A DNA stretch of 64,000 bases, from positions 1 through 64,000 of the IMG/VR virus record IMGVR_UViG_2061766007_000015. The stretch is one strand, 5' to 3'. This DNA comes from a virus (lineage: Duplodnaviria; Caudoviricetes). This document shows, one piece after another, positions 44,813-50,074 of this stretch. A model generated the notes under the pieces. That model had not been told where the DNA came from and made no database searches. It worked only from the letters and a program-made list of their open reading frames with translations. Within the stretch, counting starts at the first letter, position 1. Every line of letters starts with the position of its first letter. The position numbers and the translations under genes were made by a program.

Positions 44813-44847
44813 TAAAAAAGTGCCTCGACTGAAAAATCGAAGCACTT
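44813..44847 (-). terminator. Intrinsic terminator ending the post-lysis cassette
   Basis: AAGTGCTTCGA/TCGAGGCACTT + TTTT. Confidence 0.75.
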
Positions 44848-44864
44848 CTTATTATTAACACTAT

Positions 44865-45281
44865 TTAGTTCTGCTCTAACTGCTTAATCCAAGATTTAAT
44901 CATCTGACGAGATTCATCGTCTTTGGCATCCATCTGTAAGTCTTTGAGACCATCAAGCAATTCATCTTTCGCTTCGGCTCTGCTGTAGCCACGGCGTCTT
45001 GAATAGTCATAAGAACCATCATAAGAATCGTCATATGAGCCGTCATCTCTAGAATATCTGCCGCGAGAATCTCTTCTTGCATTTCTGCCACGACCTCTTG
45101 CTCTACTATAAGAATCATAGGAGTAGTCAGCCTCTTCCATTGCTATGATTGTGTCAATGGATTTAATCGAGTGAGTAAGTTTGTCGATAATGTCAAGGCT
45201 TGTTGTTGACATTTCATCCTTCTTAGTACACTCGTTAAGTTCGTCCATGAGCATTTCTCTTAACTCTTCCAACTTATGCAT
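44865..45281 (-). CDS. Protein with helical ends and central R/G/S/Y/D low-complexity region
   Basis: YSYDSYSRARGRGRNARRDSRGRYSRDDGSYDD. Confidence 0.8.
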   Translation of the reverse strand: MHKLEELREMLMDELNECTKKDEMSTTSLDIIDKLTHSIKSIDTIIAMEEADYSYDSYSRARGRGRNARRDSRGRYSRDDGSYDDSYDGSYDYSRRRGYSRAEAKDELLDGLKDLQMDAKDDESRQMIKSWIKQLEQN

Positions 45282-45294
45282 ACTTTTCTCCTTC

Positions 45295-45747
45295 CTATGC
45301 GATTCTGGTAATTACAAGGTTTGAGTTCTGTACATCGATAGTAGGTGTAGGCGTAACTGCAGGGTCGTCAACTGTTGCATCAACATATCTTACTGCTACT
45401 GAGAAACAGCATCCCTTAGGTACAGTTACGATTGCAGTAGAGGTCACATTACCGAAGGTATCAACTACTGTAGGCGTGTAGATTGCCTCGCTTGTAGGTC
45501 TTGCCTCACCATTAACGCTGATTGCTACTGCTATGGGAGTTATGGCGCCACCCGTAGGTATTGCTATATTGCCATTATAAGTTACCTGATATCGTGCAAA
45601 ACAATTGTTAGTGATTCCACGGAGAATAAAAATTCCTGTTTCGTCCTCATGATATACACATCCTTTGGTACAAGGGATAGAAGCAGTAAACAGTACTGGA
45701 CTATTAAGTGCTACTGCCTGTACTGCATTTGCTAAATATTCTGCCAT
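45295..45747 (-). CDS. All-beta protein (BclA C-terminal/jelly-roll-like)
   Basis: Beta-strand pattern; VTVPKGCC; NSNLVITRIA terminus. Confidence 0.7.
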   Translation of the reverse strand: MAEYLANAVQAVALNSPVLFTASIPCTKGCVYHEDETGIFILRGITNNCFARYQVTYNGNIAIPTGGAITPIAVAISVNGEARPTSEAIYTPTVVDTFGNVTSTAIVTVPKGCCFSVAVRYVDATVDDPAVTPTPTIDVQNSNLVITRIA

Positions 45748-45759
45748 AGTTTCACCTCC

Positions 45760-46554
45760 TTACATTCCACAACCGCATCCACCATTGTTGCAAGTGAAGA
45801 TGGGAGTTCTGCCATAAACCGGAGTAGTGGGAACAGGACAGTTGTTAAGTCTGTTATACAACTGGTCAACCTCGTTAGCAAAGCCCTGCTGAATAAATGC
45901 GTTCTGAGCAACCTGAGATTCACGAAGAGAAGCCATAGATAACTGTCTTTCGAGGTCTGCGATTTTCTCGTTCTTAGCATCAATCTTGTCCTGGCACATC
46001 TGGTCAAGGATTCTCTGAGTGTTTGCTGTCTGGTTTGCGAGTAAGTCACGAACACCCTCATTGATTACCTGTCTGTCTGCACAGTTCTCGGTAGCAACTG
46101 TGTACTTAAGGTCTGCAATGCCCGCACGATTTTCGCAACAACAGTTCTGAAGTGCGCTCTGTACGCCAAAAATGCTCTGCATATTAGCCATCTGACGAGC
46201 GTTTGCACCCTGCTCAACTCCTGCGAAGCCGTTGCAAAGAGCCATCTGTACATCACCGAAGCCGTTACATAACTGAGTAGAAATGCCAGTAATACCGTCA
46301 CGAATGGAAGTGATGTTGTCGTTAAGCATCTGATTCTGGAAGCCGTTGCTGGTAAGGTTAGCCTGATTCATCCAAGGATAAATGTCGTTGCCTACACCTC
46401 CACCGAAGCCGCCGCCCCATCCGTTGTTGCCCCAACCGAGTAAGAGCAAAAGAATAATCCATGCCCAATCTCCGCCAAAGCCATTACCGAATGCGTTGTT
46501 GCCGCCTGCGGGACCTACAAGCATTGTGGTGTTCATTCCACTTTCGTCTGTCAT
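45760..46554 (-). CDS. Gly-rich TM + coiled-coil + Cys-rich protein
   Basis: GGDWAWIILLLLLGWG; LCNGF repeat; QNCCCE; C-terminal CNNGGCGCG. Confidence 0.85.
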   Translation of the reverse strand: MTDESGMNTTMLVGPAGGNNAFGNGFGGDWAWIILLLLLGWGNNGWGGGFGGGVGNDIYPWMNQANLTSNGFQNQMLNDNITSIRDGITGISTQLCNGFGDVQMALCNGFAGVEQGANARQMANMQSIFGVQSALQNCCCENRAGIADLKYTVATENCADRQVINEGVRDLLANQTANTQRILDQMCQDKIDAKNEKIADLERQLSMASLRESQVAQNAFIQQGFANEVDQLYNRLNNCPVPTTPVYGRTPIFTCNNGGCGCGM

Positions 46555-46586
46555 TTTGTTTTCCTCCTTTAAACTATTAAGGTTAG

Positions 46587-46610
46587 CGACTCATCAAATT
46601 TGATGAGTCG
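46587..46610. repeat. Perfect 24-bp palindrome
   Basis: CGACTCATCAAATTTGATGAGTCG. Confidence 0.9.
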
Positions 46611-46633
46611 GATATATAAAAGTTGCGCCACTT

Positions 46634-46846
46634 TTATTTCTTGAATAACTGCTGAATTATTGGATTGTTTCGCATTTGCATAGCACGATTGACTTGTGCT
46701 TGCGATACCTGACCGGTATTAAGAAGGTGCTGAATAATCTCATTTGGATTATTTAGATTCTGTGGTATATTATATCTCTGAGATAACAACTGTATAGGAT
46801 TTGACTGAAACTGTTTAGCCAGTTCAAACATATTATTCATCGTCAT
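46634..46846 (-). CDS. Small Q/N-rich protein
   Basis: 70 aa; NPIQLL...NPNEIIQHLLNTGQVSQ. Confidence 0.8.
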   Translation of the reverse strand: MTMNNMFELAKQFQSNPIQLLSQRYNIPQNLNNPNEIIQHLLNTGQVSQAQVNRAMQMRNNPIIQQLFKK

Positions 46847-47273
46847 CTTCTATAATCACCTCACGCTTTACTTTCTTTAACTTAGCCAAATCAGTTTTAA
46901 CTGTCTTAAGTTCATTCTTGACAGCCTCAAGTTCTGCCTTTTCTGCATAATCAACTTTCTTTTCAGGCTCGGCTGTCTCTGAGTCCTCTTTTATGAGTCT
47001 ATACTTTTCAAAACGAGGAGGCTCTAATTGAGAAAAGCCCATCGTCTTTGTATATATGTAAGGTGCTGACTCATCTTTAAACGTAATGCTGTTACCCAAT
47101 GCGACAGGATAGTTTCTTGCATCAGCCTCACTAGGTATTCCTATAAGACCGTTGGTCTGAGGTGTAGGCTGTAATTGTGCCTGTGGCATCTGAATCTGCT
47201 GTTGGCTAGGGTAAAACTGCTGTTGCTGTTGGGGATAAAACTGTTGCTGTGGATAAAAATTAGGATAGGGCAT
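46833..47273 (-). CDS. Protein with Q/P-rich N-terminus
   Basis: YPQQQFYPQQQQQFYP repeats. Confidence 0.8.
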   Translation of the reverse strand: MPYPNFYPQQQFYPQQQQQFYPSQQQIQMPQAQLQPTPQTNGLIGIPSEADARNYPVALGNSITFKDESAPYIYTKTMGFSQLEPPRFEKYRLIKEDSETAEPEKKVDYAEKAELEAVKNELKTVKTDLAKLKKVKREVIIEDDDE

Positions 47274-47276
47274 TAT

Positions 47277-47657
47277 TTACTCCTCTCTGTACCAATAATA
47301 AATTGGTGTCTCATCACCTGAGTCCCACGAATCGTAGTAATCTCCGTCAATTACCGCAACTACATGGGTACCAGTACCTACAATGTATGTGCCTGTAAAA
47401 TGCTCACCACAGAAGTCTCTTATTGTGTAGCATTTCGGACAAGTGTCGGGCAACATACGACTACGAAAACCGTAAGACTTGAGAAGTTCAGCCCATACTC
47501 GATTTGAAGATGGCATATCGCACATAGCGAAACCTTGTACCACTAATTCTATATAGGTAGAATACCAATCTTGGTCAAGTGCTATAGATAATGCTCTAAC
47601 GACACAATCGCCGACATATGAACCATACGGGTTGGGATTTACTTTAATAAATGCCAT
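47277..47657 (-). CDS. Putative papain-like (Cys-His-Asp) peptidase
   Basis: GDCVVRA...THVVAV.DG.YYDSWDS; AGGAG SD before MAFIKVNPNP. Confidence 0.65.
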   Translation of the reverse strand: MAFIKVNPNPYGSYVGDCVVRALSIALDQDWYSTYIELVVQGFAMCDMPSSNRVWAELLKSYGFRSRMLPDTCPKCYTIRDFCGEHFTGTYIVGTGTHVVAVIDGDYYDSWDSGDETPIYYWYREE

Positions 47658-47747
47658 GGCTGTTCTCCTCTCTTCAATTAAATCATAACAATAATTAAAA
47701 CAGAGTGAGTGCCAGTATAGATGCATTGATGGACCATTTATGTGCAA

Positions 47748-47780
47748 TAAAAAAAAACACCAAGATTATTTCTTGGTGTT
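47748..47780 (-). terminator. Strong intrinsic terminator
   Basis: AACACCAAGA/TCTTGGTGTT + T tract. Confidence 0.85.
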
Positions 47781-48005
47781 CCATAGAATTTTATTAAATA
47801 ATTCTGTTTCTGCCTTGTACACGATTCGTTTCATTTGCGAGTAGGAATAATCAAATTCAGCCGCTAACTCGTATAATAACAAACCGTCTAATAGGTGCCG
47901 CTTTAGTATCGCTCGGTCTCTTTCTGAGAATATGTACAAATCAATTAACTCGGACAACTCAGCAGTTGTGTACAGTGTAATTTCAACTGGTTTCTTTCGT
48001 CTCAT
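47766..48005 (-). CDS. Sigma70 region 4-like HTH protein
   Basis: SERDRAILKRHLLDG..LYELAAEFDYSYSQMKRIV. Confidence 0.75.
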   Translation of the reverse strand: MRRKKPVEITLYTTAELSELIDLYIFSERDRAILKRHLLDGLLLYELAAEFDYSYSQMKRIVYKAETELFNKILWNTKK

Positions 48006-48121
48006 TTCTTAATTTTTACTCTACCAGTTCCATGACACATATTACATTTACGATAACCAGTCTTACCGCCGGTTCTTCGTCTATGTGTAGTTCTAGTTAT
48101 CCGTACCTTCTGTCTCGCCAT
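48002..48121 (-). CDS. Tiny basic protein with single CxxCxGxG motif (39 aa)
   Basis: Hand-translated MARQKVRITRTTHRRRTGGKTGYRKCNMCHGTGRVKIKK. Confidence 0.6.
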   Translation of the reverse strand: MARQKVRITRTTHRRRTGGKTGYRKCNMCHGTGRVKIKK

Positions 48122-48365
48122 TAAGTTCTCCGTTTATGATATAATTGCTACCAAATGTATCAGCATCCTGCTCTGCTTCAATCACTGTGGTGTCGGTATT
48201 ATAACTACTTAGCAAATCATTATATGCTATAGTCCAAGCCAGATTAGTTATAATAAACAAGGCGAGTATAACCATCTTCTCTATGAATGACCGTCTGTTT
48301 GTTCGCTCATGCGAAGCCACAAGAGCATCAATAAGATATGCCTTAGGCATGTCTCTCTCGTTCAT
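48093..48365 (-). CDS. Single-pass membrane protein
   Basis: TM MVILALFIITNLAW. Confidence 0.7.
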   Translation of the reverse strand: MNERDMPKAYLIDALVASHERTNRRSFIEKMVILALFIITNLAWTIAYNDLLSSYNTDTTVIEAEQDADTFGSNYIINGELNGETEGTDN

Positions 48366-48612
48366 TACTTTTTAACTCCTTAACCTCTGTTTTCAGTACT
48401 GCAATCTCATTCTGCATGGCATAGACAATGGACCTTAGGTCTTTATTATCCTGCACTATCTCTTTAATATCATTGCTGATACTTTCAAGTTTTGCCATTA
48501 AAGAAGCAATCGTGGCTACATTTTCTTTGGTATCTTTCTTACTTGCTGTCCACACTGCAAATGCAAATGAAGCAAATGATATTACCCATGGTATAATCTT
48601 ATCTATCGTCAT
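48343..48612 (-). CDS. Holin-like / XhlA-like membrane coiled-coil protein
   Basis: N-terminal TM + coiled coil, directly after endolysin. Confidence 0.6.
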   Translation of the reverse strand: MTIDKIIPWVISFASFAFAVWTASKKDTKENVATIASLMAKLESISNDIKEIVQDNKDLRSIVYAMQNEIAVLKTEVKELKSNERERHA

Positions 48613-49868
48613 AGGCTTGCCTCCAAATCTGCAAGTTCTTTCTGTAAGGTAGCAATCTGCTCTTTCAGATAAGAAATGCGGTTGAGTACATCCTCGTTGG
48701 CCGAGGGTTTGTTATTCTTTAACTTTAAGCCCCATAAATTAACGATAAATTCACAATGAGCCTTAGCGCACTGATGAGCAAATTCATCTGTAATGATAAT
48801 TGGCTCATCTACGGTTGAATCCATAAATCCATGCTCGATTAAAAGCGCATCTGCCTTAGGCATCCTTACTTCGTATAACTCAGTTGTAGGTATAATCTTA
48901 CGAGACCTATCACCTACAAGTCCTGTATACTTAATAAGCGTGTTATATAACTCTGTAGCCTGCTTTTCGTTTCTTGCCAACGGGTAGTGGAATACTACAA
49001 TACCACCACCATTGAAGATACGACCTGCCGCATTGTGATGAAATGCCAAATACATATCTGCTTTAAGTTTGTCAGACTCTTTGGCTCTTGTTGCAAGAGG
49101 TACATCAGTTCTACCTGTTGTGTCATCAAGTCTGATAACCTTAATGCCATCATATTTTTCTAATTCCACTTGGGTGTAACAAGCAATACGCTGGTTTAAA
49201 TCCCATTCACGAATGTCATTAGGATTAAGTTCAAGAGGTATTCTCTTACCTGCTGTATTATGACCATGTCCTGCTGAAATCACAAGAATCTTCTCGGGAG
49301 TAGTTTGAGTGCTCTCGGAAGCGGCAAAATACTTATCATAGAAGTGTCTAGCGTAATCCGCTCTCAACTTCTGCTTTGCAGGGTCGTCCTTTTTAGCAGG
49401 TCTCTCAAACTTCACCATGATAAGTATTGCGGCTTCCTCAGGAGTTTTACATGCCATTAATTCATTCATCAATGACTTACTGCTCGATAATTCTTCCCAA
49501 AACCAATCCATCTGAGTGCGAAAATCTGCAATAGATACGGCACGTGCTTTAGCAAGATTATACAGTCCTTCTTTTCTACCAGCAGAGGTCCACTGACACA
49601 GACCAAAACCTATAGAGTCATGTACAAAGTCTTTGCCATTATCAGGTCGTTTCCAAGTGCCAGCATCTACCTGACGAACATATTCCGCATCAGTTGTTTT
49701 CAATGTCGCCATTGGACCGTTCTGTGCGTTGCCTGGGTCAAGTGCAGATTCCGCAAGTTTGTTGGCTAAATCACCAGAGATGATGATACCGTTGAGACCT
49801 TTGCTGGTTTCATATGCAATTATGTCCTTAGCAACTTTCTCATTGTATGCAATCATCTCATATCCCAT
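48609..49868 (-). CDS. Endolysin: phage-tail-lysozyme-like domain + N-acetylmuramoyl-L-alanine amidase (Amidase_3)
   Basis: AESA...GFGLCQWT..RK; ISAGHG...E...HHNA...EHGFMD. Confidence 0.85.
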   Translation of the reverse strand: MGYEMIAYNEKVAKDIIAYETSKGLNGIIISGDLANKLAESALDPGNAQNGPMATLKTTDAEYVRQVDAGTWKRPDNGKDFVHDSIGFGLCQWTSAGRKEGLYNLAKARAVSIADFRTQMDWFWEELSSSKSLMNELMACKTPEEAAILIMVKFERPAKKDDPAKQKLRADYARHFYDKYFAASESTQTTPEKILVISAGHGHNTAGKRIPLELNPNDIREWDLNQRIACYTQVELEKYDGIKVIRLDDTTGRTDVPLATRAKESDKLKADMYLAFHHNAAGRIFNGGGIVVFHYPLARNEKQATELYNTLIKYTGLVGDRSRKIIPTTELYEVRMPKADALLIEHGFMDSTVDEPIIITDEFAHQCAKAHCEFIVNLWGLKLKNNKPSANEDVLNRISYLKEQIATLQKELADLEASL

Positions 49869-50074
49869 CCATCTTCTGCAACTTTTTCATTGGTACTGTC
49901 AGCAAGACCTTCGCCAATAATGTACGCAACTACTGCCGCGCCCTGCATGATAAGACCAGCGACTACCTGCGCTTCTTTATCATGACCAGTAGCAGTAATA
50001 ACACCTGAAACAAAAAGTGCTACTGCCATCCAAAATTTTCTTGAAGTAAGTTTTCTTTTCCAATCAATCTTCAT
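49853..50074 (-). CDS. Holin
   Basis: KIDWKRKLTSRKFWMAV...AYIIGEGLAD; two TMs. Confidence 0.85.
   Translation of the reverse strand: MKIDWKRKLTSRKFWMAVALFVSGVITATGHDKEAQVVAGLIMQGAAVVAYIIGEGLADSTNEKVAEDGWDMR

Follow-up and report, generated by a model that had tools for sequence, protein, structure and literature searches.

A portable six-gene cassette in phages of gut Clostridia, candidate for a lysis-coupled assembly with a C1q/TNF-type jelly roll

Within the 64,000 nucleotides of the Caudoviricetes record IMGVR_UViG_2061766007_000015 analysed here (positions 1 to 64,000, hereafter the window, part of a complete 73.6-kb phage genome with nearly all of its genes on the minus strand), positions 44865-47657 hold six co-oriented minus-strand genes, which follow the holin and endolysin genes and precede a consensus early promoter. 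For each of the six products there is a matching PHROG family, in every case one of unknown function. We find that these genes form one autonomous, portable and co-inherited phage operon, here called the cassette, and we propose that their products work together as a non-enzymatic assembly, not as a pathway. The reading that we favour, tentatively and with a probability of roughly 35%, is a very late, lysis-coupled, multi-protein assembly of the knob-on-stalk kind, which would be matured by a peptidase and exposed only at lysis.

A co-inherited six-gene unit

An initial annotation of the window had described a separate unit of six genes between two terminators, and all the open reading frames, their strand and both terminators are as it described them. 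From the upstream end, the genes are:

47277..47657, minus strand: pep, 126 amino acids from its ATG, with the ribosome-binding site GAGAGGAG
46833..47273, minus strand: QP146, matching phrog_21718
46634..46846, minus strand: QN70, matching phrog_22984
45760..46554, minus strand: TM264, matching phrog_16490 (E 2e-38)
45295..45747, minus strand: beta150, a predicted stand-alone C1q/TNF-type jelly roll
44865..45281, minus strand: RGSY138, matching phrog_28802

They are tightly packed, with intergenic gaps of 3, -14, 79, 12 and 13 nucleotides, and five of the six carry a GGAG-type ribosome-binding site, while QN70, the gene that overlaps the end of QP146, has a weaker GAGGTG. Searches of Pfam, NCBIfam and PADLOC gave no family match at E <= 0.1 for any of the six products, the weaker hits being coiled-coil noise from TM264, while sequence and profile searches of the Protein Data Bank (PDB) with all six returned coiled-coil noise alone. 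The cassette products matched no known enzyme family, nor did any of them meaningfully match a PADLOC defence model.

The related loci comprise 80 from IMG/VR, fetched with beta150, and 23 from metagenome-assembled genomes (MAGs), and the counts of cassette genes refer to the 71 loci with enough flanking DNA. Gene order and orientation are kept in the IMG/VR loci, in the MAG loci and in GenBank phages. Co-occurrence as a block in other genomes was the test set beforehand for the unit, and the same order is indeed found in 71 of the 71 loci. Every one of them has TM264 and beta150, whereas pep occurs in 68, RGSY in 64, and the low-complexity genes QP and QN, which are hard to detect, in 53 and 52, respectively. 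The order holds at 35-55% beta150 identity in Butyrivibrio phage Ceridwen, in Dulem viruses (from lemur) and in human-gut phage contigs; the cassette is also found in rodent gut phages, and prophage copies occur in MAGs of Lachnospiraceae, Ruminococcus, Oscillospiraceae and other Clostridia. These loci span 31-62% GC. An assignment of the high-GC ones (61-62% GC) to another phylum was dropped, one of them lying in an Oscillospiraceae MAG.

The flanks, on the other hand, vary. The usual upstream set consists of an endolysin, a transmembrane protein of ~92 amino acids and one of two helix-turn-helix (HTH) families, while the downstream neighbour is a SNF2 gene in 16 loci, an opposite-strand integrase in 14 and other genes elsewhere. 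In Dulem virus 39 the cassette follows an integrase, and MT835516, a phage of the human gut, has its entire cassette and an HTH gene between Phage_min_cap2 and Phage_scaffold. The post-lysis position given in the initial annotation is thus the usual one and not a universal one. The cassette has the features of a moron, with terminators on both sides and a variable position (after the lysis genes, in the head module or beside an integrase). The constant order in 71 of 71 loci, the terminator bounds, the persistence of this order at 35-55% identity and the variable flanks together identify a co-inherited unit. Searches of a large protein collection with TM264 and with beta150 returned at least 8000 clusters at 90% identity each, so that, among the conserved modules of several genes known from phages of rumen and gut Clostridia, the cassette is one of the commoner.

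Two side observations concern its content. A seventh gene, of 104-134 amino acids and absent from the window, follows the RGSY gene in 37 of the 71 cassettes (for example L019:8853-9167, L064:9163-9567 and L124:6829-7155), with the motifs C..L..Y.I.DH and SEFL..DEL and no match in Pfam, PHROG or PADLOC. In addition, one Ruminococcus MAG (G004) carries two diverged beta150 copies (C202:4816-5265 and C171:74231-74686, with 73% and 47% identity to that of the window), which points to two different cassette-bearing prophages in one strain.

The jelly-roll protein beta150

The most conserved and most constrained gene of the cassette is beta150. Its pN/pS (ratio of nonsynonymous to synonymous polymorphism) of 0.21 is the lowest, the other cassette genes ranging from 0.37 to 0.50; its median identity is 78%, and it remains 67-84% identical across loci of 31-62% GC. 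An AF2 model with a predicted local distance difference test score (pLDDT) of 95 shows a C1q/TNF jelly roll, which is a fold of ten strands. VIA comparisons gave a Z score of 17.8 against the C-terminal domain of F-BclA, the head of the tip fibrillum (9h38; root-mean-square deviation, rmsd, of 1.8 A over 125 residues), followed by the C-terminal domain of BclA (1wck, Z 15.6), BxpB/ExsF (14.9), EDA-A1 (14.4) and the C1q family (about 14). The match to the exosporium proteins extends over 123-130 residues at an rmsd of 1.8-2.1 A with a sequence identity of 15-18%, and Foldseek gave E 2e-7. The all-beta jelly roll of the initial annotation is in this way supported by structure comparison as a fold of the BclA/ExsF/C1q type, and the model supports a C1q/TNF jelly roll closest to Bacillus BclA, F-BclA and ExsF.

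This kinship does not extend to sequence families, since beta150 has no Pfam match at E <= 1 and falls in neither BclA_C (PF18573) nor C1q (PF00386). The nearest protein-atlas clusters that carry BclA_C or C1q score 0.89-0.92 only, a lead, and the atlas contains a structure of neither beta150 nor TM264. Among 514 clusters at 50% identity, beta150 nearly always stands alone, with a length of 135-155 amino acids, and fused forms are essentially absent; a GCC motif is conserved. Its closest BFVD matches are likewise stand-alone viral jelly rolls, of 130-145 amino acids, from records labelled Sipho-, Myo- and Podoviridae.

Structural matches of beta150 also include the short tail fibre of cyanophage A-1(L) (8ke9), the A4 tail complex (9k09) and the central spike knob of phi812, and C1q/TNF-like knobs are common at the tips of phage fibres. 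They favour an accessory virion appendage, in which TM264 would be a trimeric coiled-coil fibre and beta150 its receptor- or glycan-binding knob, encoded by a gene of its own, the small proteins and the peptidase serving as chaperones and maturation factors of a structure that joins finished heads or tails. The late position with strong ribosome-binding sites fits such an appendage, and so does the cassette of MT835516 between Phage_min_cap2 and Phage_scaffold, one case inside a head module that keeps this explanation a live rival. However, flanks, genome position and host GC all vary, and for so portable a cassette a docking site on one particular virion is hard to picture; the closest BFVD jelly rolls themselves come from records with three different family labels. 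Furthermore, the core of TM264 is Trp-flanked like a membrane anchor, the cassette has its own regulator and terminators instead of lying within a structural operon, and PHROGs gives its families no structural annotation. On balance, we regard the appendage as unlikely, if well worth keeping in mind.

A peptidase-like gene in every full cassette

The head gene, pep (phrog_3754, E 5e-28), encodes a protein without signal peptide, whose AF2 model has a pLDDT of 94. In a structure search of 48,161 chains, the best 50 were all papain-fold cysteine peptidases, at modest Z scores (7.0-3.8) and with staphopain, Josephin, C39 leader peptidases, AvrPphB and PeiR among these neighbours; the best Foldseek match was Josephin-2 (E 0.03). 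Over 57 sequences, D17, C18, R21, H98, D109 and S113 are invariant, and N7 and N9, conserved in at least 90%, would supply the oxyanion Asn/Gln expected in clan CA. An extra CPxC motif is also conserved. The papain-like peptidase that had been proposed at the head of the unit is thus upheld by the fold model and by the invariant Cys, His and Asp, and pep can be predicted to be a minimal papain-fold Cys-His-Asp enzyme. Its assignment to Peptidase C39 was considered and, at the profile level, rejected: the probability was 0.2% when hhalign compared pep with nine domains of PF03412. The cassette has no transporter gene. A Pfam scan of the 57 family members found nothing consistent and no C39 match. 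Owing to the negative comparison with the PF03412 profile, we file pep outside C39, as a new small family of clan CA.

Three divergent cassettes (L064, MT835516 and Dulem virus 39) do not have pep and carry instead, directly after the RGSY gene, a small HExxH protein with weak matches to DUF6782, SprT-like and M78 families. Exactly one peptidase-like gene is found in 71 of 71 loci (papain-fold in 68, HExxH in 3), never both and never none, so that a peptidase appears integral to the unit, as the initial annotation had it. This replacement, seen in the three HExxH cases only, suggests that proteolysis may be part of the function of the cassette, and no other feature within the cassettes speaks more strongly for this. 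On the other hand, relatives of pep also stand alone in Bacillus phage Tsamsa (gp15, L106 4965-5360) and Geobacillus phage GBK2_35 (L107 4977-5366), the Tsamsa relative lying in the early region near an ocr-like anti-restriction gene.

These lone relatives beside an anti-restriction gene in Tsamsa-like phages, together with the uncorrelated trees of the cassette genes and a site between lysis genes and integrase that is the classic moron position, could be explained by a bag of unrelated moron or anti-defence genes that merely share an insertion hotspot and a promoter. Yet order and content are kept down to 35-40% beta150 identity and across 31-62% GC, the genes overlap and are translationally coupled, none matches PADLOC, and the rule of a single peptidase, for which a non-homologous type can stand in, makes functional coupling the better reading. 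A mere collection of this kind therefore seems to us decidedly improbable.

The double-glycine C39 peptidases LahT, PCAT1 and ComA also figure among the structural neighbours of pep (Z 6.3-6.7), and the conserved leader of TM264, 17-38 amino acids long, has a GG-rich end before a Gly/Trp-rich hydrophobic core. Both features, and the adjoining holin and endolysin genes, would suit a factor that acts on membranes in lysis or killing, after the model of GG-leader bacteriocins, of class I fusion proteins or of the T4-type single-transmembrane-domain holin: pep would remove the acidic leader of TM264 and so expose a Gly/aromatic-rich inserting segment, and beta150 would do the targeting. However, the C39 matches only tie with those to staphopain, Josephin and AvrPphB, and the profile probability and Pfam scan given above speak against C39. 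Moreover, the phage already has a holin and an endolysin, the reason for a bacteriocin in virulent phages is hard to see, and three low-complexity proteins would be left without a role. We judge this scenario distinctly unlikely.

TM264 and the low-complexity partners

The compositions given in the initial annotation (Q/P, Q/N, Gly-rich with CCC, and RG/SY/D) match those computed here, and its term "prion-like" can be taken as a compositional label only. TM264, with 13% G, a CCC motif and a GCGCG tail, begins with an acidic N-tail of 17-38 amino acids, in which one to four residues are acidic and Lys and Arg are missing; of the 65 distinct tails listed, 64 are free of K and R. This tail ends GG-rich, in some subtypes with hydrophobic residues at -4, -7 and -12, and is followed by a hydrophobic, anchor-like core, Trp-flanked and set within Gly-rich segments, by a long Q/N-rich helical region with the conserved Cys motifs STQLC, CCCENR, ENCADR and LDKLC, and by a strongly conserved Cys-rich C-terminal tail, CPVPTTPVYGRTPIFTC..GCGCG. 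No Pfam or PDB relatives were found for TM264, an individual Pfam scan of the members of its family gave nothing consistent, and its neighbours in the protein atlas are unnamed viral proteins only.

In QP146 (12% Q, 10% P, with YPQQQ repeats), a Y/P/Q-rich N-terminal tail precedes a conserved core of ~45 amino acids (YPVAPGNSVTFKDE..PYIY.KTMGFSQLD) and a charged coiled-coil C-terminus; its PDB matches are all to coiled coils. RGSY138 (11% R, 12% S, 14% D) is arranged as a helix, a disordered RGRG.NARRDS.GRYS / SY / D-rich segment and a second helix, with no Pfam or PDB relatives. Searches of GenBank phages by tblastn with RGSY138 and QP146 were nearly empty, probably through low-complexity masking. 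QN70, a small Q/N/M-rich helical protein (17% Q, 17% N), found nothing in a PDB profile search. When PF17830 and PF09280 were tested, STI1-HOP_DP matched 9 of 37 members of its family and an XPC-binding domain one, all below the Pfam thresholds; the best of these matches reached 21.9 bits (E 1.3e-4), where the cut-off is 26.4. As a lead only, QN70 could be a "helical hand" of the STI1/DP kind, made to hold hydrophobic segments.

The exosporium kinship of the beta150 fold (BclA, BxpB and ExsFA) and the Cys-rich, Q/N-rich and RG/Y-rich compositions, which resemble those of coat proteins, invite an explanation by modification of the spore surface or exosporium, or else by a condensate, a compartment or an occlusion body within the cell, in which virions would be embedded; many Clostridia with prophage copies may also sporulate. 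Against it, Ceridwen, which bears the cassette, was isolated on and plaques on Butyrivibrio fibrisolvens DSM 3071, which is not known to form spores, and this makes the spore-surface reading, advanced in the initial annotation, unlikely. An NCBIfam scan of the six products found no exosporium leader (TIGR03720) at E <= 1, and BclA_C gave no sequence match either; a trace of such a leader in the "LVGP" of the TM264 N-tail was discarded as a four-residue coincidence. In addition, virulent-type phages carry the cassette directly upstream of early replication genes, and its neighbour is the lysis operon, not sporulation genes. Disulfide cross-linking, for its part, would be doubtful in the anoxic rumen. 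Taken together, this explanation is very unlikely.

Genomic setting and regulation

The cassette of the window lies between the lysis operon and the early replication genes, with the following elements, given from upstream to downstream:

49853-50074, minus strand: holin-like gene
48609-49868, minus strand: endolysin, with Phage_lysozyme2 and Amidase_3 domains
48343-48612, minus strand: small membrane or coiled-coil protein
48093..48365, minus strand: p90, a single-pass membrane protein
48002..48121, minus strand: very basic open reading frame of 39 amino acids, CxxCxGxG (DnaJ-type knuckle)
47766..48005, minus strand: reg79, 79 amino acids, sigma-70 region-4-like HTH, last gene of the lysis operon
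47754..47782, minus strand: upstream terminator (12-bp stem, 5-nucleotide loop, T-run), closing the lysis/regulator operon
47658..47753, minus strand: cassette leader and putative promoter region of ~95 nucleotides, with an extended -10-like TGTTATGAT at 47690-47682 and the GAGAGGAG ribosome-binding site
46587..46610, minus strand: hairpin in the 79-nucleotide gap between QN70 and TM264 (perfect 10-bp stem, no U-run)
about 44815..44847, minus strand: downstream terminator, closing the cassette, as read from the sequence
44800-44772, minus strand: promoter of the SNF2 early operon, a perfect TTGACA-17-TATAAT (12/12), consensus sigma-70

The genes of the lysis operon overlap or abut, and no strong terminator was seen among them. 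No family match was found for p90, which travels with the cassette: a homologous transmembrane protein of ~92 amino acids lies upstream in 40 related loci. The stop codon of the 39-amino-acid frame overlaps the start of reg79 (ATGA), which suggests that the candidate zinc-knuckle peptide is translationally coupled with the regulator. Sub-threshold matches of reg79 are to TIGR02937 and Sigma70_r4-type families, and an HTH gene lies ~200 nucleotides upstream of pep in the related loci, from the reg79 family in 39 and from the second family in 19. This makes reg79 a candidate dedicated regulator of the cassette.

In the leader, TTGCAC, TGGTCC, TGCATC and TGGCAC, as read from the sequence, follow each other with an 11-bp phasing from 47747, 47736, 47725 and 47714, and exact 11-bp direct repeats occur in ~7 of 24 intergenic regions between the regulator and pep, with inexact ones in several more. 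Exact repeats upstream of pep are seen, for instance, in L016, L031, L038, L055, L071 and L073 (such as TGCACGAA..TGCACGAG), and a terminator-like hairpin with a recurrent loop of the TTCATTGT type lies just downstream of the repeats in L005, L013, L057 and L061, among others. These elements may be where the HTH protein binds as an activator or brings about antitermination. The cassette promoter itself is a prediction from sequence only. An HTH gene that comes last in the lysis operon and a leader of its own behind a terminator would fit a very late, activator-dependent unit. Directly beyond the downstream terminator come the SNF2 helicase and replication genes.

The gap between QN70 and TM264 is the only sizeable one inside the cassette of the window. 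A folding energy of -22.5 kcal/mol (z -3.75) was computed for a stretch of 96 nucleotides in which the 46587-46610 hairpin and another one lie. The 46587-46610 hairpin may act in the processing or stability of the RNA, and by dividing the operon it could set different levels for the two halves. In Dulem virus 33, an opposite-strand gene annotated "endonuclease" (L002 7040-7591) is inserted between the pep-QP-QN and TM264-beta150-RGSY halves, at the same place as the hairpin-containing gap of the window.

A candidate lysis-exposed assembly

How the products could act together can be outlined as follows. Transcription would start very late, from an activator-dependent promoter of the cassette's own, by means of the regulator encoded at the end of the holin-endolysin operon; the arrangement of these genes is observed, and the timing is our supposition. 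Judging by its charge distribution, TM264 would anchor in the cytoplasmic membrane with its acidic N-tail out and its Cys-studded helical stalk in the cytoplasm, where the other products, which have no signal peptides, would stay. By forming the usual trimer of its fold, beta150 could become the knob and a docking hub for peptide segments of its neighbours. Here the analogy is with the ExsF trimer, which binds exosporium-leader peptides in the clefts between its subunits, residues 1-19 of BclA being cleaved off (PMC12357932). The single peptidase would trim one partner, the best candidate being the conserved N-terminal leader of TM264 with its GG-rich end, whereas QN70 may hold the hydrophobic segment of TM264, and QP146 and RGSY138 would supply coiled-coil and disordered linkers. 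The opening of the cell by holin and endolysin would then expose the complex, which, on membrane debris or released, could bind a conserved ligand; adhesion, cloaking of debris and protection of the progeny phage are all candidate purposes.

A more specific version of this scheme, which we deem quite unlikely, is a phage structure that has not been described before: a split, membrane-anchored C1q/TNF-like "ligand", the leader of which is cut and the new end or tail of which docks in the clefts of a BclA/ExsF-type trimer, as in the assembly of the exosporium nap. It would be produced during the final minutes of infection, so that at lysis the membrane remnants, or the progeny phage, would bear a conserved coat of an adhesive or protective kind. 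If this were true, the cassette would give bacterial viruses a counterpart to the "very late" genes for occlusion or coats.

Several observations weigh against the lysis-exposed assembly. When the distance matrices of the cassette genes are compared in pairs, there is almost no correlation (rho 0.05-0.31), and a mirror-tree comparison of TM264 with beta150 gave no signal of co-evolution (rho 0.14); a contact between these two proteins consequently draws no support from co-evolution, and the cassettes reshuffle their alleles freely. For TM264, the membrane topology is read from charge counts, and the STI1-like signal of QN70 is sub-threshold. The lone relatives of pep in Tsamsa-like and GBK2 phages indicate that the peptidase can act outside the cassette, and the head-module position in MT835516 would suit a virion role as well as portability.

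Novelty and significance

The paper on Ceridwen lists these genes as hypothetical, giving no function and no proteomics, and nothing relevant on BclA/C1q cassettes in phages came up in a search of the literature. The cassette would therefore be new as a system, although built from two known folds. Its retention as a unit in spite of free recombination and of varying position and GC, together with its constrained knob, points to a general and so far unrecognised late-cycle task in the gut. If a lysis-exposed coat or adhesin is its true nature, it would represent a new class of phage late function and carry the BclA/ExsF docking principle beyond spores. The cultured pair of Ceridwen and Butyrivibrio fibrisolvens DSM 3071 makes its function directly testable.

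Comparison with known systems

In its genomic arrangement, the cassette recalls morons and type 10 secretion-like cargo loci, where in Clostridia a regulator and a holin accompany the cargo: it is likewise bounded by terminators, placed after the lysis genes and preceded by a small sigma-like regulator. Like holin-endolysin-dependent cargo, its products have no signal peptides and would exit through lysis only. In contrast to such loci, it encodes a structural-looking set of six proteins and not a toxin or enzyme, occurs in virulent-type as well as temperate phages and shows no homology to known cargo.

With the minimal peptidases of clan CA (C39, Josephin-type deubiquitinases and staphopains), pep shares the fold in 126 amino acids, and its Cys-to-His spacing of ~80 residues followed by Asp resembles that of the ComA and LahT peptidase domains. 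Unlike C39 peptidases, it is not fused to an ABC transporter, has the extra CPxC motif and shows no similarity to the PF03412 profile.

A second parallel is offered by TNF/C1q ligands (EDA-A1 and C1q-like proteins, Z 13-14.4), since the gene order of the cassette, with a membrane anchor, a helical stalk and a jelly-roll head, mirrors the domain order of type II TNF ligands and of C1q ligands, from an N-terminal anchor through a trimeric stalk to a C-terminal head. Stalk and head are, however, separate polypeptides in the cassette, which has no sequence relationship to these ligands and neither a signal peptide nor a positive-inside signal for surface display.

The closest likeness is to the nap/F-ENA module of the Bacillus exosporium, made of the ExsFA/BxpB trimer, the cleaved leader of BclA or F-Anchor and the F-BclA knob. 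It shares the jelly roll with beta150, which as a stand-alone protein of ~150 amino acids is like ExsF/BxpB, and both systems include a proteolytic step and Cys-rich partners (PMC12357932). The cassette differs in that a collagen-like stalk, the TIGR03720 leader and any homologue of ExsY/CotY are all missing, and in being phage-encoded beside lysis genes, with a separate, membrane-anchored helical protein as the candidate for its stalk. The resemblance to the exosporium is thus one of fold and logic, not of membership.

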